From NCBI GenBank assembly GCA_028867755.1, contig JAGWFT010000001.1:1060727-1124726 (forward strand): a DNA stretch of 64,000 nt, in the 5' to 3' direction. Below, piece by piece: positions 31,565 through 62,836 of this stretch (the first letter of the stretch is position 1; each line of letters begins with the position of its first letter). This stretch comes from Nitrososphaerota archaeon. Lineage in GTDB: Archaea > Thermoproteota > Nitrososphaeria > Nitrososphaerales > Nitrosopumilaceae. A model generated the notes under the pieces. The model saw only the letters and a program-made list of their open reading frames with translations. It was not told where the DNA came from and searched no databases. The position numbers and the translations under genes are program-made.

Positions 31565-33241
31565 ATGGAAATATCAAGCAGAAATGTAGTTGATGGCCCG
31601 TCAAGGGCACCCCACAGAGCAATGTACAAAGCAATGGGGTTAACAGATAATGATCTTGGAAAACCATTCGTGGGAGTCTCACATACAGGTAATGAAGCAA
31701 CCCCATGTAATATTCACCTTGGTAGATTGGCCTTGCATGCAAAAAATGGTGTTCAAGAATCTGGCGGAACCCCAAGAGAGTTTTCTACAATTGCAGTAAG
31801 TGATGGAATAGCAATGGGTCACGAGGGCATGAAGTCTTCACTGGTCAGTAGAGAAGTAATAGCTGATTCTATTGAATTAATGGTAAGAGCACATCAGTAT
31901 GATGGGCTTGTAGGAATAGCAGGATGTGACAAGAGTTTACCAGGTTCTATGATGGCCATGGCACGATTGAACATCCCATCAGTTTTTGTTTATGGTGGAA
32001 CCATAATGCCTGGAATTTACGAAGGAAAACAAGTCACAGTTCAAGACGTTTACGAAGCAGTAGGGGCATATGATGCAGGACAGCTAACTCTTGAGGCGCT
32101 CAAGAATTTGGAGAACGTAGCATGCCCAAACGCTGGCTCTTGTGGAGGCATGTACACTGCAAATACAATGGCATCGATTAGTGAAGCCATTGGAATTGCA
32201 TTGCCTGGAAGCGCATCTCCTCCTGCAGAAGATCCTAGAAGAGAGAAAATTGTCTACCAAAGCGGCAAGGCAGTCATGAACTTGCTTGAAAATGGAATAA
32301 GGCCAAAAGACATTCTTACATATGAGGCATTTGAGAATGCAATAACTATTGCTAATGCCATAGGTGGTTCTACAAATGCAGTATTGCATCTTCTAGCACT
32401 ATCTAGAGAAATCGGCATAAACTTGACCCTTGAAGATTTTGAAAAAGTGAGAAAACGCACACCGCATATTGCAGATATGAGGCCTGGGGGATTTTATGTC
32501 ATGCTAGATCTTGATAAGATAGGCGGAATTCCTCTAATAATGAAAAGTCTGCAGAAAAAAAATCTCTTAAATGGAAATGCATTGACTGTCACAGGAAAGA
32601 CAATGAAGCAAAATTTGGATTCCATACAACTTTCTTTTGATGAGAATCAAAAAGTACTAAAACCTATAGAAGCACCAATTCACAGTGTAGGAACTCTAAC
32701 CATACTTCGAGGAACCCTTGCTCCAGATGGAGCTGTTGTCAAAGTAGCTGGAATGCATACAACAGAATTTCGAGGAAAAGCCAGAGTATTTGACAGAGAG
32801 GAAGATGCATTTGACGCAATATCAAAACGCGAGATTAAGGAAAATGATGTAGTTGTTATCAGGTATGAGGGTCCAAAGGGTGGCCCAGGTATGAGAGAGA
32901 TGCTCGGAGTCACAGCTGCACTGGTTGGACAAAAATTAGGTGAGAAGGTAGCACTTGTTACAGATGGAAGATTCTCAGGTGCCACTAGAGGTTTAATGAT
33001 AGGGCATGTATCTCCAGAAGCTGCAGTTGGCGGAAACATTGCATTGGTAAAAGACGGCGATGAAATTATAATCAACATTGAAAAGAACAGTATAGATATC
33101 ATGGTACCAGAAAATGAACTTGCAGAACGCAGAAAGCAATGGAAGCCAAGAAAACCAAATTATGAAAAAGGCGCATTGGCAAAATTTGCCTCACTTGTCA
33201 CCTCAGCATCTGAAGGGGCAATAACAAAACCCAAGTGGTAG
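31565..33241 (+). CDS. ilvD: Dihydroxy-acid dehydratase
   Basis: [54 protein letters not shown]. Confidence 0.96.
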
Positions 33242-53899: not shown

Positions 53900-54940
53900 A
53901 TGAAAGCAGCTTATGTAAAAGGGCCATCAAATGTAGAGATCAAAAATGTCGAAAGACCACAAGTCGGAAGTAGCGACGTCATAGTGACAATGAAGGCATG
54001 TGGGGTATGCGGATCAGACCTGGAAAAAATTTACGGGCAGTACAGTCAGCCATCCATGAGACTGGGCCACGAGCCATCTGGAACAATATCTCAAGTGGGA
54101 ACCAATGTAAAAGAATTCAAGAAAGGAGACAGAGTTTTTGTCCATCATCACGTACCATGTTACTCGTGCCACTTTTGTACGCACGGAAATGAGACAATGT
54201 GCCAGAAATATTCCGAGACAAATCTTAGTCCATGCGGTCTTGCCGAGGAATTTCTTGTCCCTGATTGGAACGTCTCCCACGGAGGAGTAATAAAATTACC
54301 AGATCACATAAGCTTTGAAGAGGCGTCCATGATAGAGCCCCTTGCATGTTGCATTAGAGCATGGAACAAAGTCAAGTTCAAACATGGAGACTCGGTTGCA
54401 ATTCTTGGGGCGGGCCCAACAGGTATGATGCATGTAATGCTAAGCAAAACTTTTGGAATAAAAGACATCTTCTGTTTTGACATAAACAATTTCCGACTAG
54501 ACTTTGCCAAAAAACTTGGAATAACGGATGCTATCCATTCTACCGACCCAGAAGCACATCAAAAAATTCTTGCCGGAACTGAAAATAGAGGAGTAGATAT
54601 AGCAATAGTGGCCACTGGAAGTCTTGGTGCAATTTCACAGTCAATTGACATAGTTAGAAAAGGCGGAACAGTAGTTCTTTTTGGCGTACCTTCAAAAGAT
54701 GCAAAAATGCCTATTGATGTTAGTAAAGTGTACTCAAAAGAGATAACTATAACACCAAGCTATGCTGCATCCGAAATCGATACAAATTCTGCGCTCAAAC
54801 TAATAGAAGAAAAAATAGATGTGAACAGATTGATTACACATAGGTTTGATCTTTCTGAATCTGCAAAAGCACTAGAATACGCTCATCAAGGAAACGATTC
54901 AATGAAGATAGTTGTAACAAATTCAGAAAGGCTTAACTAA
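53900..54940 (+). CDS. Zn-dependent MDR alcohol/polyol dehydrogenase
   Basis: CGSD, GHE, structural Zn CYSCHFC...C, EPLAC, GAGPTG, LITHRF. Confidence 0.9.
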   Translation: MKAAYVKGPSNVEIKNVERPQVGSSDVIVTMKACGVCGSDLEKIYGQYSQPSMRLGHEPSGTISQVGTNVKEFKKGDRVFVHHHVPCYSCHFCTHGNETMCQKYSETNLSPCGLAEEFLVPDWNVSHGGVIKLPDHISFEEASMIEPLACCIRAWNKVKFKHGDSVAILGAGPTGMMHVMLSKTFGIKDIFCFDINNFRLDFAKKLGITDAIHSTDPEAHQKILAGTENRGVDIAIVATGSLGAISQSIDIVRKGGTVVLFGVPSKDAKMPIDVSKVYSKEITITPSYAASEIDTNSALKLIEEKIDVNRLITHRFDLSESAKALEYAHQGNDSMKIVVTNSERLN

Positions 54941-54962
54941 GGCAAATTTTTTGGAAGAAGAT

Positions 54963-55817
54963 ATGGATTGGGGATTAAAAAATCGACTTGCACGCATAAT
55001 AAAACATCATGATAACCGAGGAGTAATGCTTGCTGTAGACCATGGCTATTTCCTAGGACCTACAGAAAGATTAGAAAATCCAAGAAAGACGATTGCGCCT
55101 TTGTTGCCTCATGCTGACTCATTAATGCTTACACGTGGGGTTTTGAGAACATCGGTAGATGCGTCATATCCTATTCCTGTAGTGCTTAGAGTTTCAGGTG
55201 GCTCTAGCATAATTGGCAAAGACCTCTCAAACGAAAAAATAACCACATCAATAAAGGAGGCAATTAGATTAAACGTGTCAGCACTTGCAATGTCAATATT
55301 TGTAGGCGCGTCTCATGAGCACGAATCACTTGTAAGCCTTGGCAATCTAGTAAACGAAGGCGAGGAATATGGAATACCAGTTCTTGCTGTCACAGCAGTA
55401 GGAAAGGAATTGGAAAAACGAGACGCAAGATACTTGGGTCTAGCATGCAGAATAGCTGCTGAATTTGGCGCACACCTAGTAAAAACATACTATTGTGAGA
55501 ATTTTGAAAAAGTTGTAAACGCTTGTCCTGTACCAGTCATAATTGCAGGAGGCCCAAAACTAGCAACAGAGTTAGATGCGTTAAAACTTACCTACGATGC
55601 AATCCATTCAGGTGCTGCTGGAGTAGACATGGGAAGAAACATTTGGCAATCAGATCATCCAGTTGCAATGCTCAAAGCTGTCAAAGCTATAGTACACCAG
55701 AATTTAACAGTAAAAGAAGCCTATGAGATATTCAACAAGCTAAAACATGTTGAAAAACCAGCAGCAGCAACAAAGCCTGCCACTAAATCTGGCCAGAAAT
55801 CTAGTCGGAAATCTTAG
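54963..55817 (+). CDS. lsrF: LsrF-like class I aldolase/thiolase
   Basis: MDWGLKNRL, MLAVDHGYFLGPT, LMLTRGVLR, VKTYY, CPVPVIIAGG, GVDMGRNIWQSDHPVAM match the recalled E. coli LsrF sequence closely. Confidence 0.8.
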   Translation: MDWGLKNRLARIIKHHDNRGVMLAVDHGYFLGPTERLENPRKTIAPLLPHADSLMLTRGVLRTSVDASYPIPVVLRVSGGSSIIGKDLSNEKITTSIKEAIRLNVSALAMSIFVGASHEHESLVSLGNLVNEGEEYGIPVLAVTAVGKELEKRDARYLGLACRIAAEFGAHLVKTYYCENFEKVVNACPVPVIIAGGPKLATELDALKLTYDAIHSGAAGVDMGRNIWQSDHPVAMLKAVKAIVHQNLTVKEAYEIFNKLKHVEKPAAATKPATKSGQKSSRKS

Positions 55818-56292
55818 ACAGATGCACGTGTACAATCTTCCATTTTTGGGACTTTACTAAAACAAATGTTCCTCGGCTTTCCATTGAAAGATGCTGGCCT
55901 CGAAAGCTATAGTTATCAACAATCATTCCAGTTTGTCTTATAACAAAAGTTACCACTGCGCAATTCTCAAATATGTCTACACGTGTATTTTTAATTTCAT
56001 GTTCATAATCAGATATACTAACAAACCTTAGCTGTTGTAATGCAATGGTAGTAGCATAGTCTTTCAAGTCAAAAGGCGGAACATCACTATAACTTGAAAA
56101 TCTAGGATCATCAAGTTGGATTGCACTTAGTGGTGCCAAGTTCTTTGTCTTTCCAGCGTTGAAGAAAGTTGCAACTATATCAATTATCTCGTCTTTATCG
56201 CCCAAAATCGATATGGTTTGAGATAATTCTAGTTTAAGTCTTGTGAAACGTAGACCAAATCTGTCACTAGTGTTGAAATATTCATGAGGCAA
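55801..56292 (-). CDS. NTF2/SnoaL-like (DUF4440-type) protein; start uncertain
   Basis: RGTFVLVK..KWKIVHVHLS C-terminus. Confidence 0.75.
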   Translation of the reverse strand: MPHEYFNTSDRFGLRFTRLKLELSQTISILGDKDEIIDIVATFFNAGKTKNLAPLSAIQLDDPRFSSYSDVPPFDLKDYATTIALQQLRFVSISDYEHEIKNTRVDIFENCAVVTFVIRQTGMIVDNYSFRGQHLSMESRGTFVLVKSQKWKIVHVHLSKISD

Positions 56293-56373
56293 TAATGGTA
56301 TTTTTGATAATTTTATTCGTTTTCACTAGCAATATTTATAAATTATTTCAGAGGGAAAAATCATAGACTAAAA

Positions 56374-56436
56374 ATGAAGTTAGGAGGTTCGGCAAGCATT
56401 TCTTGTATTCTGCTGCTAGTCGACCTTCTGCTGTAG
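56374..56436 (+). CDS. Putative ilv-leu leader peptide MKLGGSASISCILLLVDLLL*
   Basis: 20 codons, of which 7 Leu, 2 Ile, 1 Val; 8 of the last 9 are branched-chain; located between a TATA-like box (TTTATAAA 56335-56342) and ilvB. Confidence 0.65.
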   Translation: MKLGGSASISCILLLVDLLL

Positions 56437-56453
56437 ATTACAGCAAAGTTTTT
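56382..56453 (+). promoter_or_regulatory. Attenuator-like RNA: long hairpin 56382-56429 overlapping a terminator-like hairpin 56425-56448 plus U5
   Basis: AGGAGGUUCGGCAAGCA pairs with UGCUAGUCGACCUUCU (15 bp); CUUCUGCUGUA-GAU-UACAGCAAAG then UUUUU; TTCTGCTG repeated at 56408 and 56426. Confidence 0.6.
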
Positions 56454-56466
56454 GGAGTTAAAAATT

Positions 56467-58155
56467 ATGGAAAAAATGTCAGGTGCTAGGTCTTTAATGG
56501 TTGCCCTCGAGAAAGAGGGTGCAAACATAGTCTTCGGACTACCCGGAGGCGCAAATCTTCCAATTTATGATGAGCTTTACAAAAGCAACATCAGACATAT
56601 TCTTGTCAGACACGAGCAGTCTGCATCACACATGGCAGACGGTTTTGGAAGAGTCAGCAGAAGACCTGGAGTATGTTTTGCAACTTCAGGTCCTGGAGCA
56701 ACTAATATCGTAACGGGAATTGCTACTGCACAGGCAGATTCTGCCCCGATGATTGCAGTTACTGGACAAGTACCTACAAAAATGATTGGAAAAGATGCAT
56801 TTCAAGAAAGCGATATCATCGGAATTACAAACCCCATAGTAAAATATGCATTTCAGCCCATGACTGCAGCAGAAATCCCCGAAGTGGTAAAAAAAGCATT
56901 TTACATTTCATCTACAGGTAGACCTGGCCCTGTGCTAATTGATATTCCAAAAGATGTTCAACAAAATGAAGCTGAGATGGTATTTCCTTCAGAAGTAAAA
57001 ATAAGAGGATACCATCCATGGGTAGACCCAGACATTCGAGAAATTGAGCGAGCAATAAACATGCTACTTGCTGCTGAAAAACCAGTAATCTTGGCAGGTG
57101 GTGGTGTAATAATTTCTGGAGCCTTTGCAGAGCTCCAGTCAATAGCAGAATTATTAATGATTCCAGTAGTAACAACATTCAAAGGAAAAGGCTCATTTCC
57201 AGAAAATCATCCTCTTTCCCTAGGACCAATAGGAATGCACGGACATGCAGAAGCCAACAAGATCATGGTCGAAGCTGACTGCGTACTTGCATGTGGTTCT
57301 AGATTTTCAGATAGGTCTGTAGGAACATTTGAAGAATTTGAAAGAAATCTCAAGATAATACACATGGATGTAGACCCAGCTGAGATAGGAAAAAACCAAA
57401 CTACTCACATAGCAGTAGTGGGCGACATCAAGGCCTCGCTTAGAATAATGGTAAAAATGTTAATCCAAAAGGCCACCAAGCGACCTGGAGATAATCCATG
57501 GTTAAAGCGTGTGAACGAGACTAGAGAGTACTTTAGACAAAATCTAAAGCTTCATTCTCACCCATTGGGGGCAGCAAAGGTTCTAAGAAAATTAAGAGAG
57601 GTGCTCCCACCACAATCAATTGTAACAACCGAAGTAGGACAACATCAAATGTGGGCGTCATTATTTTTTGACGTTATACATCCAGGGACATTTTTTAGCT
57701 CCACTGGTCTTGGCACAATGGGTTGGGGTTTTCCTGCTGCGATTGGCGCCAAAGCTGCCAAGCCAGAAGTTCCAGTAGTAGACATAGCAGGAGAGGGAAG
57801 TTTTAACATGACTGAGAACTCACTTGCAGTTTCAGTATTAGATGACTTGCCTGTGATAGTATTTTTGTTAAACAACTTTTCACTTGGAATGGTTGCCCAG
57901 TGGCAGAGGACATTTTATGACAGACGCATGATAGGAATAGATCTCAAGAATTGCCCAGACTATGTCAAATTAGCCGAGTCTTACGGAGCCCAAGGCATAA
58001 GAGCACAGAGCATAGACGAGATTGGAAAGGCAGTTCAAACTGCACTAAAAAGCAACATAGCCACAGTAATTGACATTCCAATCGACCCTCAAGAAGATGT
58101 CTTGCCATTTGTGGCCCCTGGAACATCACTCAAGGAAATGATATTGCCATCATAA
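56467..58155 (+). CDS. ilvB: Acetolactate synthase large subunit (start ATG 56467, GGAG at 56454-56457)
   Basis: FGLPGGA, RHEQ, TSGPGATN, GPVLIDIPKD, GLGTMGWG, ThDP motif GEGS...NN. Confidence 0.95.
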   Translation: MEKMSGARSLMVALEKEGANIVFGLPGGANLPIYDELYKSNIRHILVRHEQSASHMADGFGRVSRRPGVCFATSGPGATNIVTGIATAQADSAPMIAVTGQVPTKMIGKDAFQESDIIGITNPIVKYAFQPMTAAEIPEVVKKAFYISSTGRPGPVLIDIPKDVQQNEAEMVFPSEVKIRGYHPWVDPDIREIERAINMLLAAEKPVILAGGGVIISGAFAELQSIAELLMIPVVTTFKGKGSFPENHPLSLGPIGMHGHAEANKIMVEADCVLACGSRFSDRSVGTFEEFERNLKIIHMDVDPAEIGKNQTTHIAVVGDIKASLRIMVKMLIQKATKRPGDNPWLKRVNETREYFRQNLKLHSHPLGAAKVLRKLREVLPPQSIVTTEVGQHQMWASLFFDVIHPGTFFSSTGLGTMGWGFPAAIGAKAAKPEVPVVDIAGEGSFNMTENSLAVSVLDDLPVIVFLLNNFSLGMVAQWQRTFYDRRMIGIDLKNCPDYVKLAESYGAQGIRAQSIDEIGKAVQTALKSNIATVIDIPIDPQEDVLPFVAPGTSLKEMILPS

Positions 58156-58164
58156 GGTATATTC

Positions 58165-58656
58165 ATGTGGTCCATAATTTCCGTACTTGTAGAAAATAAA
58201 CCTGGAGTGTTATTCAAGGTTACACATCTCTTCAGATCAAGAAATTACAACATAGATAGCATATCGGTTGGCATAACAGAAAATCCAGAATTTTCTAGAA
58301 TGACGATTACAACATCTGCTGACGAGAAACAACTCAACCAGATAATCAAACAACTCGATAAAATGATAGATACGGTAGAAGTAAAATTATTAGATGAGAA
58401 GAAGAGCATATACCGTGAGCTAGTACTAATGAAGATAAAAATAACAAAACCATCAGACATAATGGAGATAACTGATCTTGCAAACGCCTTCAAGTGTAAT
58501 GTACACGACGTAAGAAAGTCATCAATCATCGTGGAGATAACAGCAACACCCGACAGGATCAGTGCATTTGAAGATCTAGTCAGAGGATACGGTATACTTG
58601 AGATAACAAGAACCGGACTTTGTTCACTAGAGCGAGGAGTTGGAAATGAAAGTTAG
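58165..58656 (+). CDS. ilvH: Acetolactate synthase regulatory subunit
   Basis: VENKPGVL, RNYNIDSI, SRMTI, KQLDKMID, RELVL, EITRTG. Confidence 0.92.
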   Translation: MWSIISVLVENKPGVLFKVTHLFRSRNYNIDSISVGITENPEFSRMTITTSADEKQLNQIIKQLDKMIDTVEVKLLDEKKSIYRELVLMKIKITKPSDIMEITDLANAFKCNVHDVRKSSIIVEITATPDRISAFEDLVRGYGILEITRTGLCSLERGVGNES

Positions 58657-60163
58657 AATTTTTGATACTACTCTAAGAGATGGGGAACAAACACCTGGCG
58701 TTGCATTAACCCCAGAACAAAAGCTTTCAATTGCTCAGAAATTAGATGAATTGGGAGTGGATGCCATAGAAGCAGGCTTTCCAATAATCTCAGATGGCGA
58801 GAGAAAGGCGGTAAAAGATATAGCCCATGCTAATCTTAGGGCAGAAGTTTGCGGCTTGGCAAGAACTGAGAAAAAAGACATAGATGCCGCAGTGACAGCT
58901 GGGTTGAAGTACATACACACATTTATTGCAACATCTGACATTCACCTAAAATACAAACTCAATCTTACACGAGAGCAGGCAGTGGCAAAGGCAATCGAGG
59001 CAGTAGAATATGCAAAATCATGTGGATTACAAGTTGAGTTTTCTGCAGAAGATGCAACAAGAACTGACAGAGAATTTCTCAAAAAAGTTTTCAAAGCAGT
59101 AACAGAAGCTGGTGCCGATAGGATAGACATACCAGACACAGTGGGCTATTCTACTCCGCAGTATATAGCTTCAATTACAAAAGATGCGATTGATGTTACT
59201 CATTTACCTGTCAGTGTTCATTGCCACAATGACTTTGGTTTAGCTGTGGCAAATGCAATATCTGCAATTCAAGTGGGAGCACAGTGTGCACATGTTACAA
59301 TAAATGGCATCGGAGAAAGAGCAGGCAATGCATCACTTGAAGAACTTGTCATGGCACTACAATGCTTACAGTTTGATAAGAAATTTGAGACAAACATCAA
59401 TACCAAACTTCTCTATGAGACATCACGATATGTTTCAAAGATCGTTGGAGTCCAAGTACAACCAAACAAGGCCATAGTGGGAGAAAATGCATTTGGGCAT
59501 GAATCTGGAATTCACACCCATGGAGTATTGAATAATCCATTAACGTATGAACCAATCAGCCCAGAACTTGTAGGTAGGACGCGTTGGTTCCAGGTAGGAA
59601 AACATGCTGGAGCACATGGCGTTGCTGCAATGCTAGAGGAATACGGCATCCAGCCATCAAAGGAGCAGACACATGAGATACTAGAGAGAGTCAAGAAATT
59701 AGGAGACCAAGGAAAGCACGTCACAGATGTAGAATTACTATCAATCTCAGGTGAAGTTATGCATCAGGAAGGATTGAAAAGACTAGTCCACCTAACGGGA
59801 TTTTCAGTATCTACTGGAATTGGCAACATGCCATATGCATTTGTCAAACTAAACATAGAAGGAAAAGACTTTGTTGGCACAGATCATGGTGTTGGGCCTG
59901 TAGATGCATCAATTAATGCAATACAAAAAATCACTGGGGAGATTGCCAAAGTCAGAATAAAAGAATACAAGCTAGATTCAATTTCCGGCGGATCAGAGGC
60001 ATTATGTGAAGTAACAGTAAAGGTAGAGGATGCATATGGAAATCAGGCTTCTGCAAAATCTATTGGGGAAGATATTGTAATTACTAGTGTTCAAGCTATG
60101 ATAGATGGCATTAATAGAATAATGCTCAAAAAAATTCTTAAACAAAAAAACTTGGGACACTAG
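58646..60163 (+). CDS. leuA: 2-isopropylmalate synthase (LeuA/CimA family)
   Basis: DTTLRDGEQ, HCHNDFG, GERAGN, NKAIVG.NAF.HESGIH, regulatory domain GVGPVDA; CimA activity cannot be excluded. Confidence 0.85.
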   Translation: MKVRIFDTTLRDGEQTPGVALTPEQKLSIAQKLDELGVDAIEAGFPIISDGERKAVKDIAHANLRAEVCGLARTEKKDIDAAVTAGLKYIHTFIATSDIHLKYKLNLTREQAVAKAIEAVEYAKSCGLQVEFSAEDATRTDREFLKKVFKAVTEAGADRIDIPDTVGYSTPQYIASITKDAIDVTHLPVSVHCHNDFGLAVANAISAIQVGAQCAHVTINGIGERAGNASLEELVMALQCLQFDKKFETNINTKLLYETSRYVSKIVGVQVQPNKAIVGENAFGHESGIHTHGVLNNPLTYEPISPELVGRTRWFQVGKHAGAHGVAAMLEEYGIQPSKEQTHEILERVKKLGDQGKHVTDVELLSISGEVMHQEGLKRLVHLTGFSVSTGIGNMPYAFVKLNIEGKDFVGTDHGVGPVDASINAIQKITGEIAKVRIKEYKLDSISGGSEALCEVTVKVEDAYGNQASAKSIGEDIVITSVQAMIDGINRIMLKKILKQKNLGH

Positions 60164-61180
60164 ATGTACAAAATATCTCTTATAACTGGAGATGGCATAG
60201 GTCCCGAATTATCCGAATCTGTTATAGACATACTGCATGCGATAAATGACAAGATTGGACTAAAGATAGAAATCAATACAGTTGAAGCAGGTGATGCTGC
60301 ATTAAAAAAAACTGGCAAGGCACTTCCCGATTCAGCTCTGGATACAATAAAAAAATCTGATACATGCCTAAAAGCTCCAGTAGGAGAAAGTGCTGCAGAT
60401 GTCATTGTGTTTTTACGAAGAGAGTTGAACCTTTATGCCAACATAAGGCCTGCAAAATCATATCCCAACATGCCTGCCCTTAAAGAAAACATTGACTTGG
60501 TCATAGTACGAGAAAACACAGAAGACCTCTACACAGGAATGGAGTTTGAGGTAGACAACTCTGCAATTGCATTGAGAACCATATCAGAATATGCTTCAAA
60601 CCGTATTGCAAAATATGCCTGTATTGTTGCAAATCAAAGAAATAAGCAAAAAAGGGTAACCTGCGTTCACAAGTCAAATGTCATGAGAAAGACAGATGGC
60701 CTTTTTGCAAGATCATGTGCTGCGGCAGCAAAGGACTTTCCCAATATCACGTTTGACCAGATGTATGTAGATGCATGTGCCATGAACCTCATCAGACAGC
60801 CAGAGTCTTTTGATGTCATAGTGACAACTAACTTGTTTGGAGACATTTTATCTGATGAGGCTGCTCAAGTAGTTGGTGGGCTTGGTATGGCACCTGCTGC
60901 CAACATTGGAGATAATTTTGCCTTGTTTGAGCCTGTCCATGGAGCAGCTTTTGATATTGCAGGAAAACAAGCTGCCAATCCGTCTTCTTTTATCCTATCT
61001 GCAAAAATGATGTTTGAGTGGTTAGGAATGAAAAACAATGATGCAATGTCTTTTACTGTGGCAAAGAAGATAGAAGAGGCGGTGTATGGGGTCGTAAGAG
61101 AAGGAATCAAGACTAGAGACATTGGCGGAAACAAAACAACCAAAGAATTTACTCAGCATGTAATTTCAAAACTTACTTGA
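60164..61180 (+). CDS. leuB: 3-isopropylmalate dehydrogenase
   Basis: GDGIGPE, RENTE, HKSNV, NLFGDILSD, FEPVHGAAFDIAG; follows leuA. Confidence 0.88.
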   Translation: MYKISLITGDGIGPELSESVIDILHAINDKIGLKIEINTVEAGDAALKKTGKALPDSALDTIKKSDTCLKAPVGESAADVIVFLRRELNLYANIRPAKSYPNMPALKENIDLVIVRENTEDLYTGMEFEVDNSAIALRTISEYASNRIAKYACIVANQRNKQKRVTCVHKSNVMRKTDGLFARSCAAAAKDFPNITFDQMYVDACAMNLIRQPESFDVIVTTNLFGDILSDEAAQVVGGLGMAPAANIGDNFALFEPVHGAAFDIAGKQAANPSSFILSAKMMFEWLGMKNNDAMSFTVAKKIEEAVYGVVREGIKTRDIGGNKTTKEFTQHVISKLT

Positions 61181-61546: not shown

Positions 61547-62836
61547 TTACGGAAACAGCCTTTCTGGATCTCTTGGATAGAGAACAACTTCCCTTACATT
61601 ATCAATCTTAGTCAGGACTGACATTAATCTGTCAAGGCCCAGACCCCATCCAGAATGTGGAGGCATACCCCAATCAAATGCCTTGAGGTGATCTTCGAAT
61701 TGAGACGGGTTTAGTCCTTGTTCGGTCAATCTTTCCCTAAGCTTGTTTGGATCGTGCAGACGCCTTCCACCTGATGATAACTCAAGATACCCATATTGCA
61801 AATCAAATGACTTGGATAGTGATTGATCATCTTCTTTTTCGTGTATGTAAAATGGCTTGAGCTTCATAGGCCAGTCTATCAAAAAGTAGAACCCGGAATG
61901 TAGTTCTCCAAGTTTTCTCAAATGAGAGTCTAGTAAATCGTCACCATTTGCAAGACTAATGCCTTCTTTGCCAAGTTCTTCGATAGCTTGCTTGTAAGTT
62001 ATTTTCTCAAATGGCGTCTTGGGTTTTTTGATATCAATTCCTAGAATTTTTTGTTCGTCTATACAGTTCTTTTCAACATATTCAAAAACATTGGTCACAA
62101 GTTTTTCTAGAATTTCTGCAACATCAAGATAATCCATGAAATCAGCTTCAATGTCTACACTTGTAAATTCGGTAAGATGTCTAACGGTATGCGATTTTTC
62201 TGCCCTGTAAAACGATGCTATTTCAAAAACTCTTTCAAGCCCAATTGTTAGCTGCTCTTTGTAAAGTTGCGGGCTCTGTGCAAGATATGCTTGCTTGTCA
62301 AAATATTTCAGAGAGAACAGGTTTGCACCCCCTTCACTGGCGCTTCCAATTATTTTTGGTGTATTTACTTCAATGAAACCAAGATCTACCAAAGTTTTTC
62401 GCATTGATTGCAATACATGGTGGCGCATTTTGAAAATGGCCGCAGTTTTCTGATTTCTTAGATCAAGCGCTCGTGCATTTAATCTATTATCAATATTACT
62501 TTCTAACCTTCCTATTGGGTCAATTGGTAAAGGATGTACTGCACGTGACAAGATTTCTATCTTTTCTGATTTTATCTCAAATGGAAAATCTCTTGATTTA
62601 GTGTCTTGTATTGCACCAGTGATTCTCACTACACTTTGCCTATTGAGGTCTTTTACTTGCTTGATGCCCGCTTCTCCAACCACCACCACTTGGGCAACTC
62701 CTGTAACGTCTCTGAGTGTGAGAAAAGTGAGTTTTCCCAGTTCACGAAGGTCTTCTACCCAGCCTCCAACCACTACCTTTTGACCTTTCAGGGACTGGTT
62801 TATGCTACCAATATAGTGTGTCCTTTTCAAATCCAA
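61547..62836 (-). CDS. aspS: Second aspartate--tRNA ligase, probably discriminating
   Basis: KRTHY, GGWVEDLRELG, L1 loop TKSRDFPFEI without the ND Pro, LAQSPQLYKE, PPHSGWGLGLDR, YPRDP. Confidence 0.9.
   Translation of the reverse strand: MDLKRTHYIGSINQSLKGQKVVVGGWVEDLRELGKLTFLTLRDVTGVAQVVVVGEAGIKQVKDLNRQSVVRITGAIQDTKSRDFPFEIKSEKIEILSRAVHPLPIDPIGRLESNIDNRLNARALDLRNQKTAAIFKMRHHVLQSMRKTLVDLGFIEVNTPKIIGSASEGGANLFSLKYFDKQAYLAQSPQLYKEQLTIGLERVFEIASFYRAEKSHTVRHLTEFTSVDIEADFMDYLDVAEILEKLVTNVFEYVEKNCIDEQKILGIDIKKPKTPFEKITYKQAIEELGKEGISLANGDDLLDSHLRKLGELHSGFYFLIDWPMKLKPFYIHEKEDDQSLSKSFDLQYGYLELSSGGRRLHDPNKLRERLTEQGLNPSQFEDHLKAFDWGMPPHSGWGLGLDRLMSVLTKIDNVREVVLYPRDPERLFP

Follow-up and report, generated by a model that had tools for sequence, protein, structure and literature searches.

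Leader-peptide attenuation is a textbook bacterial mechanism that needs coupled transcription and translation, and in Escherichia coli the operons ivbL-ilvBN, ilvL-ilvGMEDA and leuL-leuABCD for the branched-chain amino acids (BCAA) all have attenuators of this type. The enterobacterial BCAA leaders contain a short open reading frame (ORF) rich in codons for the products of the operon, and between it and the first enzyme gene lie a hairpin and a U-run. In the E. coli pyrBI operon the leader ORF runs into the terminator hairpin and UTP is sensed through pausing of RNA polymerase, such that efficient translation leads to read-through. A stalled ribosome can also stabilise a message, as with ermC mRNA. 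The Corynebacterium glutamicum ilvBNC operon has a leaderless leader peptide, IlvL, and a three-hairpin model in which H1 limits initiation to nascent RNA and carries the control codons early, within its 5' side, and in which the H2 antiterminator overlaps the terminator (PMC11857589). Mycobacterial leaderless small ORFs (sORFs) encoding polycysteine form a 'Cys ribulon', in which a stalled ribosome blocks a duplex that sequesters the ribosome binding site (RBS) (bioRxiv 10.1101/834739). Full-text literature searches found no paper describing an archaeal leader-peptide attenuator.

Here we describe an upstream ORF (uORF) ending in a run of Ile, Leu and Val codons that precedes the ilvB-ilvN-leuA-leuB operon in the window, the whole analysed stretch of 64,000 nucleotides of DNA from a Nitrosotalea species. 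The features of the locus are:

56335-56342, + strand: TATA-like box TTTATAAA, putative leader/ilvB promoter, read from the sequence
56374-56436, + strand: leader uORF of 20 codons plus UAG, predicted product MKLGGSASISCILLLVDLLL, with its ATG at 56374 and its stop at 56434-56436
56407-56433, + strand: Ile/Leu/Val run I L L L V D L L L, codons 12-20, the presumed sensing codons
56449-56453, + strand: U5 tract, directly 3' of extended helix B (see below)
56454-56457, + strand: GGAG Shine-Dalgarno-like motif of ilvB, 9 nt 5' of its ATG
56467-58155, + strand: ilvB, acetolactate synthase large subunit (TIGR00118, 715.9 bits against a cut-off of 538)
58165-58656, + strand: ilvN/ilvH, acetolactate synthase small subunit (NF008864, 179 bits against a cut-off of 119)
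58640-60163 (start codon approximate), + strand: leuA, 2-isopropylmalate synthase (NF002085, 639.9 bits against a cut-off of 517)
60164-61180, + strand: leuB-type isopropylmalate dehydrogenase (TIGR02088, LEU3_arch, 402.5 bits, slightly below the cut-off of 409.8)

By profile the last of these is an isopropylmalate/isocitrate-type dehydrogenase, and we assign it as leuB because of its operon context. An earlier note on this DNA had placed the TATA-like box, the uORF with its Ile/Leu/Val codons, two hairpins, the U5 tract, the GGAG motif and the ilvB ATG, and all of them are found where it put them, as is the duplication of TTCTGCTG at 56408 and 56426. Codons 12-20 of the uORF read ATT CTG CTG CTA GTC GAC CTT CTG CTG, so that eight of the nine specify Ile, Leu or Val and four are CTG. 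The divergent neighbour at 55801-56292 was considered as a regulator and rejected, as its product is SnoaL-like and not a transcription factor.

Archaeal transcription starts at a usual distance from the TATA box, and at this locus it would start at approximately 56363-56366, 25-30 nt past the box, which itself lies 39 nt 5' of the uORF ATG. Because this predicted start is so close to the ATG, the uORF would be the first cistron of the transcript, with a leader of 0 to about 10 nt. The spacing is similar in relatives, with a TATA-like box 33-38 nt 5' of the uORF ATG at 74 of 76 Nitrosotalea-clade loci and 31-40 nt in most of the other families checked. Literature searches returned no start-site data for ammonia-oxidising archaea.

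The arrangement resembles the enterobacterial attenuators in having a conserved short ORF in the 5' leader of a BCAA operon, with codons for the operon's products and a hairpin plus U-run behind it. It differs from them in its archaeal TATA promoter, its putatively leaderless or near-leaderless uORF, a U-tract that is only partly conserved and a termination step that is a prediction. Moreover, its Ile/Leu/Val run takes up the final 7-9 codons, right up against the stop and the hairpin, and leaves no 'segment 2' further downstream that a stall could free.

The uORF is conserved well beyond the window. It was found in 27 of 29 members of an initial sample of relatives, and a homologous uORF is present at all 76 named Nitrosotalea-clade loci, in which the reading frame, ATG and stop are kept and the N-terminal residues vary. 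Across the class, an ORF with at least seven Ile/Leu/Val codons among its last ten precedes ilvB at 57 of 95 loci (1 of 95 in the reverse-complement control), and the qualifying loci span at least 12 families and extend into other orders, examples of their tails being ALIVLLIVV and IVLLIPLI immediately before the stop. The conservation of such a uORF before ilvB, which the earlier note had proposed to test for in relatives, is therefore borne out both within the clade and across the class. At the window locus the uORF and ilvB are in frame, 93 nt apart and with no stop between them, and a fusion of the two by read-through of the stop codon was entertained; we rejected it as coincidental, since relatives do not preserve the shared frame, their distance ranging from 91 to 98 nt and being 93 nt in only 15 of 76.

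Within its own genome the uORF stands out, although it is not alone in composition. At least eight Ile/Leu/Val codons among the last ten are found in 3 of 2,360 ATG-started upstream sORFs, or before 3 of 1,529 genes, and ilvB is the only one of these with BCAA genes downstream; lowering the threshold to at least seven gives 12 of 1,529 genes. The other high-scoring upstream sORFs precede unrelated genes, encoding NuoN, MtnA, a Pit-type transporter, CdvA and an F420 oxidoreductase. Chance is excluded as the source of the Ile/Leu/Val-rich uORF before ilvB. An upstream Ile/Leu/Val leader was looked for at ilvC, ilvD and leuC of the same genome and none was found, and when upstream sORFs across the genome were scanned for runs of any one amino acid, no leader for His, Trp, Thr or Phe was convincing.

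The substitution pattern of the run indicates what is being maintained. At loci pre-selected for Ile/Leu/Val-rich tails, the family-averaged frequency of these residues peaks at 0.8-0.9 over codons -2 to -7 from the stop. In the genus, entropy at codon positions 1, 2 and 3 is 0.52, 0.12 and 0.28 respectively; position 2 is a nearly invariant U (approximately 70% of position 2), while positions 1 and 3 drift, with position-1 substitutions swapping Leu, Ile and Val among one another. The remaining amino acids with NUN codons are avoided, with Phe accounting for none of 76 NUN-class residues in the genus (13.8% in the proteome) and Met for 3 of 76 (7.4% in the proteome). This constancy of U at position 2, together with the avoidance of Phe and Met, points to selection for Ile, Leu and Val codons as a class. 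We do not extend the argument to codon rarity: CUG makes up 10% of Leu codons in the genome but occupies four of the seven Leu positions of the leader, yet UUG takes its place in the sister subclade, and the preference may stem from RNA pairing.

A conserved and probably translated ORF with a hydrophobic C-terminus and a hairpin behind it might instead encode a functional small hydrophobic peptide, or be an independent mini-gene with its own terminator that happens to neighbour ilvB. However, only composition is kept between families, with lengths of 9 to about 55 codons and unrelated N-termini, and the hydrophobic stretch of 7-9 residues is too short for a membrane span. Phe, Met, Ala, Gly and Trp are all avoided in favour of the three products of the operon, and the linkage to ilvB is held in at least 12 families, so that we regard either version of this explanation as very improbable.

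Three helices can be drawn in the leader RNA:

56382-56398 (codons 3-9) with 56414-56429 (codons 14-19), + strand: helix A, predicted, 15 bp
56430-56435 with 56439-56444 (core, GCUGUA/UACAGC), extended form 56425-56448, + strand: helix B, predicted, spanning the stop codon
56403-56419 with 56428-56443, + strand: alternative helix X, predicted, taking up both arms of helix B

Helix A has a predicted energy of -19.3 kcal/mol (z -2.7; 1 of 200 shuffles equally good) and helix B of -8.4 kcal/mol (z -3.0; 2 of 200), and the fold of the whole leader has a z-score of -2.1. In a 74-sequence genus alignment 87% of cells are paired in helix A, compared with 22-55% in slid controls, and 98.6% in helix B, where five sequences share a G:C to A:U compensatory change. 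Overall the paired share of cells is 90% and some changes are compensatory, this covariation being thin in a set of sequences that are related to one another. Every lineage folded is predicted to pair its Ile/Leu/Val tail with the start-proximal portion of the uORF, and the hairpins of other families, which differ in sequence from helix B, begin no earlier than 6 nt before and no later than 9 nt after the stop codon's first base. Both stems, which the earlier note had proposed to look for in relatives, thus recur in many families with unrelated sequences and mostly negative z-scores. This conservation of the uORF together with both stems, in the face of differing sequences, strongly supports a translated leader that would sense the branched-chain amino acids.

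The earlier note had also raised the prospect that the palindrome in helix B (GCTGTA-N3-TACAGC) is a DNA operator only, and one can likewise imagine an RNA that binds a protein or metabolite, with no translation and an incidental ORF. The palindrome arms are indeed almost invariant within the Nitrosopumilaceae, but their spacing in relatives is N3, N4, N5 or N9, which is unusual for a dimer operator, and hairpins of unrelated sequence occupy the equivalent place in other families. Furthermore, the 5' arm is bound by the Leu and stop codons that it encodes and the 3' arm follows it, as in the G:C to A:U compensation, while the three-nucleotide periodicity (U at position 2) and the in-frame ATG and stop are kept throughout. 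Rfam leader families (Leu_leader and the other amino-acid leaders) gave no match at E<=10 in 55500-57000 on either strand. The palindrome as nothing but an operator fits these observations poorly, and we consider the whole no-translation reading to be extremely improbable.

The relationships among the three helices bear on how such a leader could work. The earlier note had described the two hairpins as overlapping, and this holds for the extended form of helix B, which shares 5 nt with helix A; the 15-bp helix and the core of helix B simply adjoin, and competition comes only from the 3-bp extension of helix B (56425-56427) and U56429. Similarly, its match to the bacterial layout stands as regards the product-rich leader ORF and the hairpin but fails for the run, which lies in the 3' arm of helix A and not in a 'segment 1' whose masking would release an antiterminator, so that trp-type logic would have the wrong sign for stalls at codons 12-15. 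Helix X, on the other hand, would take up both helix B arms; with the 5' arm of helix A removed, the minimum-energy structure predicted for 56399-56453 is X (-12.7 kcal/mol). It is paired in 81% of cells in the genus, although slid registers give 52-64% because CUGCUG is repeated in the region. A single covarying pair (C:G to U:A, joining nucleotide 1 of Leu codon 13 to nucleotide 3 of the stop) probably reflects one evolutionary event and lends it weak support. Helix X is a possible antiterminator-like competitor on these folding models.

With helix A as pause, X as antiterminator and B plus U5 as terminator, the leader could be read as a classical three-helix attenuator of the trp, leu or Corynebacterium ilvBNC type, in which an early ribosome delay in the uORF lets X form and RNA polymerase read through. 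All three helices can be drawn as mutually exclusive in the window, the geometry of hairpin plus U5 is terminator-like, and the C. glutamicum leader is likewise leaderless with a start-proximal hairpin, an ilvB gene downstream and a terminator-like hairpin before it (PMC11857589). The archaeal control codons, though, lie in the 3' arm of the first helix rather than its 5' side, and the evidence for X as an antiterminator is weak, with no X-like helix established in other families. The formation of X needs a ribosome at or before codon 6, or partly at Ile9. The Ile/Leu/Val run, by covering the 5' strand of X, makes stalls on the conserved codons 12-20 favour the terminator, which is the wrong sign; in contrast to the trp-type leaders, a stall here would free no antiterminator. 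The U-tract is poorly conserved as well. Finally, such an attenuator requires hairpin-dependent termination, which to our knowledge is not established for archaeal RNA polymerase. A classical attenuator is accordingly unlikely in our judgement.

We favour, at somewhat better than even confidence, a leader peptide whose translation controls ilvB-ilvN-leuA-leuB in cis, through occlusion of helix B by the ribosome. The anatomy, its conservation, the selection on codon class and the conserved helices are observations, and uORF translation, stalling and the output step are predictions of the model. The uORF would be translated as a near-leaderless first cistron, and when charged tRNA-Leu, -Ile or -Val is scarce the ribosome would dwell on the last nine codons, which would thereby serve as the sensor. 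With codons 16-20 occupied by a ribosome, the 5' arm of helix B would be covered and the helix held open (ON), and a ribosome that finishes and leaves would allow helices A and B to close, closed helix B being the OFF state. This would be direct occlusion and not a trp-type antiterminator relay, and helix A would probably also limit loading of the uORF to nascent or breathing RNA. As in pyrBI, a ribosome at the end of the leader ORF would physically prevent a terminator-like hairpin from forming, but the archaeal leader would sense tRNA charging, and it is the stalled rather than the fast ribosome that would turn the operon on. The geometry constrains this model, as a stall at Ile12 to Leu15 would leave helix B free and masking is confined to codons 16-20; in some families the hairpin begins 4-9 nt past the first base of the stop, and there almost no sense codon would mask it. 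At three loci of one other order (L072, L075 and L078) the stop of the uORF and the Shine-Dalgarno motif of ilvB overlap, with no hairpin, an arrangement that fits translational coupling better than occlusion.

How an open or closed helix B might be converted into operon output is constrained only loosely by the sequences that follow it. The U-tract to which the earlier note had assigned a role is present as T5 in the window, and the longest T-run is at least four at 41 of the 76 Nitrosotalea-clade loci; it is three at 22 and two or fewer at 13, and a U-run is absent in several other families, so that this part of the proposal holds for only some of the leaders. Across the 76 relatives, T makes up 53% of the nucleotides that separate helix B from the Shine-Dalgarno motif. 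Terminator-like sites are not enriched in the window (15, with 12.9 expected).

The Shine-Dalgarno motif itself is well maintained (GGAG, GGTG or AGGA before ilvB in 75 of 76 relatives) and has an unpaired probability of 0.78 in the partition function, the same at every ribosome placement modelled. Accessibility was modelled with a 28-nt ribosome mask laid over the start, codons -8 to -1 or the stop, in sets of 13, 22 and 31 representative leaders, and no systematic effect of ribosome position on the ilvB Shine-Dalgarno motif or AUG was found across the 31; the sole nominal signal is a median drop of 0.036 with the 5' arm masked. Sequestration of the ilvB RBS is unsupported by these folding models, whose scope is pairing and not steric hindrance by the adjoining hairpin. 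Pairing of CUUC in the uORF tail with GGAG as an anti-Shine-Dalgarno element was also set aside, as by reading of the sequences it comes to no more than 4 bp at this locus and the sister subclade lacks it. The leader resembles the Cys ribulon in its putative leaderless first-cistron sORF, its run of sensed codons and a stalled ribosome that would block an inhibitory structure, with terminators unneeded, but differs in that no modelled state of the window's leader is predicted to close the Shine-Dalgarno motif.

Several outputs are compatible with occlusion of helix B. Premature termination at the U-rich tract before the Shine-Dalgarno motif, either intrinsic or assisted by FttA/aCPSF1, is a reasonable candidate that we put forward tentatively, at rather less than even odds; hindered access of the 30S subunit beside the hairpin is a possibility to which we give about one chance in three; and an effect on mRNA processing or stability is a somewhat less likely possibility.

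A different reading dispenses with the hairpin as the switch, and supposes that the stalled ribosome keeps aCPSF-type nucleases away from the 5' end or from a cleavage site, with uncharged BCAA-tRNAs giving a longer-lived operon mRNA as in ermC. In most lineages checked the uORF is predicted to sit at the very 5' end of the transcript, and protection of this kind would need neither the inconsistent U-tract nor the unsupported RBS sequestration. It would also have the right sign for a stall at any Ile/Leu/Val codon and is compatible with slow-growing organisms. It leaves unexplained, however, why a stable hairpin should start at or near the stop, and we think such a switch quite unlikely as the account of this leader.

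Returning to the cis-acting leader peptide, we consider it probable that archaea have amino-acid sensors read by the ribosome and that an ancient and widespread Ile/Leu/Val leader controls ilvB operons across the Nitrososphaeria, with an architecture unlike that of any bacterial attenuator and a new output mechanism. If so, the architecture would be distinct in that the last codons of the uORF act as sensor, pair with its own start region and abut a hairpin that overlaps the stop, and the output could be novel in turn, for example through ribosome occlusion of a hairpin working with FttA/aCPSF1 or with 30S docking. The uORFs also represent an unannotated class of small ORFs that genome annotation should include. 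The leader would offer a mutable test bed for gene regulation by ribosome stalling in archaea, for the ways in which ribosome position may be communicated to archaeal RNA polymerase, FttA/aCPSF1 or initiation, and for how autotrophic ammonia oxidisers balance amino-acid synthesis.

The leader upstream of the ilvB operon contains a 20-codon ORF (uORF) in which codons 12-20 (ATT CTG CTG CTA GTC GAC CTT CTG CTG) specify Ile, Leu or Val in eight of nine positions. The elements that an earlier note listed in proposing a branched-chain amino acid (BCAA) leader-peptide attenuator were all recovered at their coordinates by sequence reading and folding. Profile scores assign the four downstream genes, ilvB, ilvN, leuA and leuB, to the large and small subunits of acetolactate synthase, 2-isopropylmalate synthase and a LeuB-type dehydrogenase. 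The leader elements, as read from the sequence, and the neighbouring genes are the following:

31610-33229, + strand: ilvD, away from the ilvB operon
53900-55817, + strand: Zn-dependent dehydrogenase (threonine-dehydrogenase-like), then LsrF/DhnA-type aldolase-thiolase (NF006081, 404.6 bits)
55801-56292, - strand: SnoaL-like gene, divergent, upstream of the leader; not a regulator
56335, + strand: TATA-like box TTTATAAA
56374-56436, + strand: leader uORF MKLGGSASISCILLLVDLLL, 20 codons from ATG 56374, UAG at 56434-56436
56449-56453, + strand: U5 tract UUUUU
56454-56457, + strand: GGAG, Shine-Dalgarno motif of ilvB
56467, + strand: ATG start codon of ilvB
61547-62836, - strand: class II aminoacyl-tRNA synthetase, Asp/Lys/Asn type (PF00152 and OB anticodon-binding domain), convergent with the leuB end

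The dehydrogenase and aldolase-thiolase pair sits upstream of the divergent SnoaL-like gene. The ilvC and leuC genes lie outside the window (C24:881581 and C24:626318 in the window's genome), scattered from the ilvB operon, and no Ile/Leu/Val-tailed uORF is present in the 260 nt upstream of ilvC, ilvD or leuC. The leader has seven Leu codons, of which four, in the Ile/Leu/Val run (56407-56433), are CUG, compared with 10% of Leu codons genome-wide; Val16 is GUC, which has a 15% share in the genome; the tRNA-Leu anticodons CAG, GAG and UAG are each represented by one gene among the 36 tRNAs detected (ARAGORN). The uORF and ilvB share a frame in the window (93 nt apart, with no stop after UAG 56434), such that read-through of the uORF stop would yield an N-terminally extended IlvB; this frame relation is not kept across relatives.

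Such tails are rare in the host genome. Crude gene calls on the 1.64 Mb sequence (38% G+C) were scanned for ATG-started small ORFs within 220 nt upstream; 3 of 2,360 such ORFs have at least eight Ile/Leu/Val in the last ten codons, and, counted per gene, 12 of 1,529 genes have one with at least seven. The other top-scoring small ORFs precede nuoN, mtnA, a Pit-type transporter, cdvA and an F420 oxidoreductase, and the ilvB leader is the sole Ile/Leu/Val-tailed uORF before a BCAA gene in this genome.

The window falls in Nitrosotalea, with the N-terminal 300 residues of IlvB being 91% identical to those of Ca. Nitrosotalea devanaterra (LN890280) and the best IlvB matches being Nitrosotalea MAGs. 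Conservation of terminal Leu/Ile/Val codons in relatives, put forward in the earlier note as a check, is borne out: the uORF is present in all 76 named Nitrosotalea-clade loci with sufficient upstream sequence, with tails including ILLLVDLML, ILLLVELVL and ILLLVEVVL. The N-termini in this clade are of two types (MKLGGS... and MTKVDS.../MKKVDS.../MVEIDS...), and the ATG, frame and stop are unchanged. Of 29 relatives in a first sample, 27 carry a comparable uORF that stops 29-74 nt ahead of ilvB, among them members of eight other families of the order. Alignment A1 takes two of its 19 rows from unpublished genomes (G017 and G011), which also account for 2 of the 29 first-sample loci; no conclusion rests on them, and a further genome, G010, contributed no locus. 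Across the class, an ATG-initiated uORF with at least seven Ile/Leu/Val in the last ten codons lies upstream of ilvB in 57 of 95 regions, against 1 of 95 on the reverse complement of the regions and 0.8% over all genes of the window's genome. Twelve families (anonymously labelled) qualify, along with two further ones with non-ATG starts, and two families of other orders have markedly different tails (ALIVLLIVV* and IVLLIPLI*/ILSIILIL*). Families f9 and f15 have weak versions only, the latter (two genomes) with 4/10 Ile/Leu/Val, and in this class-wide ilvB sample the uORF is absent from one 12-genome family and a few singletons.

In Nitrosotalea the ilvB start is marked by a conserved TTAAAATTATGG context. 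In four loci of other Nitrosopumilaceae genera (L055, L054, L059 and L063) this context is found 24-27 nt ahead of the aligned start of ilvB and opens either a second mini-ORF (e.g. MGIDLIE*, MGVMSL*) or an in-frame N-terminal extension, which may point to another small ORF with a sensing role or to an incorrectly assigned start codon.

Substitutions follow a pattern that points to translation of the frame and to selection on Ile/Leu/Val as a class. Over the last 11 codons of the unselected genus set, nucleotide entropy is 0.52, 0.12 and 0.28 at codon positions 1, 2 and 3, and position 2 is U in about 70%. Greater variability at position 1 than at 3 is predicted by selection for any of Leu, Ile or Val, because CUN, AUH, GUN and UUR interconvert there; codon 18, for example, is CUU, AUU or GUU depending on the species. 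Among NUN-class tail residues in the genus, Phe occurs in 0 of 76 and Met in 3 of 76, compared with 13.8% and 7.4% in the genome's proteome; their shares are also low in the other sets, although the tails there had been chosen for their Ile/Leu/Val content. Neither a generic hydrophobic peptide nor a pyrimidine-rich RNA strand would avoid Phe.

In 74 of 76 Nitrosotalea-clade loci the TATA-like box starts 33-38 nt before the uORF ATG; the distance is 39 nt in the window and 31-40 nt in most other families checked. From these distances and the usual archaeal spacing between TATA box and transcription start, we infer a uORF that is leaderless or preceded by no more than ~10 nt of transcript; a ribosome would meet it before anything else.

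Folding of the window's leader predicts two helices:

56382-56398 with 56414-56429: helix A, 5' part of the uORF with the Ile/Leu/Val codons; 15 bp, -19.3 kcal/mol, z -2.7
56430-56435 with 56439-56444 (core; extended 56425-56448, abutting U5): helix B, containing the stop codon; -8.4 kcal/mol, z -3.0

Folding of relatives, also suggested in the earlier note, predicts both helices on the same plan between families. In full leaders of unrelated families the Ile/Leu/Val tail forms the 3' arm and the start-proximal uORF the 5' arm, which in some families takes in the AUG, and the second hairpin starts near the stop codon, from 6 nt before its first base to 9 nt after it. Dinucleotide-shuffle z scores for 23 representatives are mostly negative (typically about -2 for the uORF-internal fold, -2 to -4 for the post-stop hairpin). 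Pairing in helices A and B reaches 90% across 74 Nitrosotalea-clade sequences, compared with 22-55% in slid registers, figures inflated by relatedness; helix B has a G:C to A:U double change in five sequences, and a few double changes are also seen in helix A. Recurrence of the predicted plan in families with different sequences is a stronger argument than pairing within the genus. The palindrome could alternatively be a DNA operator only, but the helix B arms are spaced by 3, 4, 5 or 9 nt depending on the genus, and this variable spacing favours an RNA hairpin over a dimer operator.

Bacterial toeprints and archaeal Ribo-seq suggest a ribosome footprint reaching ~12 nt past the A-site codon. 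On this assumption a ribosome held at codons 16-20 would cover the 5' arm of helix B, and one at codons 12-15 would open helix A and leave helix B free. If closed helix B is the OFF state, a ribosome resting on the final Ile/Leu/Val codons would hold it open and give the ON state; direct occlusion of this kind is the simplest model with the correct sign. Helix A may restrict uORF loading to nascent or breathing RNA, by analogy with hairpin H1 of the leaderless Corynebacterium glutamicum ilvBNC leader, for which such a limit has been proposed (PMC11857589). In three loci of family f21 from another order of the class (L072, L075 and L078) the uORF (...ILSIILIL*) stops 4-9 nt before ilvB and its UAG overlaps a GGAGG Shine-Dalgarno motif, without a hairpin between, an arrangement more suggestive of termination-reinitiation coupling than of occlusion of a hairpin.

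A classical relay is a less likely alternative and would work through an antiterminator-like helix X (56403-56419 with 56428-56443, -12.7 kcal/mol), which is the predicted fold of 56399-56453 once the 5' arm of helix A is removed and uses up both arms of helix B. Helix X is 81% paired in the genus, although the repetitive CUGCUG motif allows slid registers to pair too, and its one covarying pair, which joins nucleotide 1 of Leu codon 13 to nucleotide 3 of the stop codon and is C:G in three sequences and U:A in 15, probably reflects a single event. Helix X would need a ribosome no further along than codon 6, which leaves the conserved run at codons 12-20 unexplained. In the enterobacterial paradigm the regulatory codons are in segment 1 and the stalled ribosome frees segment 2 to form the antiterminator, whereas in the archaeal leader the run sits at the very end of the uORF (7-9 codons), where it supplies the 3' arm of helix A and directly adjoins the stop codon and helix B. 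The match to bacterial attenuators claimed in the earlier note holds for a mode of working like that of BCAA leader peptides, but fails for regulatory-codon placement, one of the defining trp-type features.

We consider it quite likely that the element is a sensor at all. Given a sensor, closed helix B might cause termination, to which we give somewhat less than an even chance: the extended hairpin abuts U5 in the window, only 5 nt before the Shine-Dalgarno motif, and hairpins with U4-6 occur in several other lineages, but the T-run does not exceed three in 35 of 76 close relatives and is missing from several families, the window shows no enrichment of terminator-like sites, and on kinetic grounds a ribosome that lags at codons 12-15 would promote termination, the wrong sign. 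Translational output through steric hindrance of 30S docking is a tentative second candidate, as in most lineages the gap between the hairpin and the Shine-Dalgarno motif is just 0-12 nt. An effect on stability, with the mRNA shielded by a ribosome stalled at its 5' end, is rather unlikely. Ribosome binding site sequestration of the mycobacterial kind (bioRxiv 10.1101/834739) is not supported, the Shine-Dalgarno motif being predicted open in every modelled state.

In its predicted leaderless arrangement the archaeal leader would resemble the C. glutamicum IlvL leader and mycobacterial poly-Cys small ORFs. No Rfam leader family matches the leader, and a full-text literature search turned up no account of an amino-acid leader peptide in archaea; a commentary from 2025 on coupling in archaea counts attenuation among the established general roles of transcription-translation coupling and gives no archaeal example (PMC13681488). 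The leader uORF is real, conserved and almost certainly functional, and very probably serves the ribosome as a gauge of Ile/Leu/Val supply. It would represent a known type of control in variant form, in a domain, the archaea, for which we found no published description.
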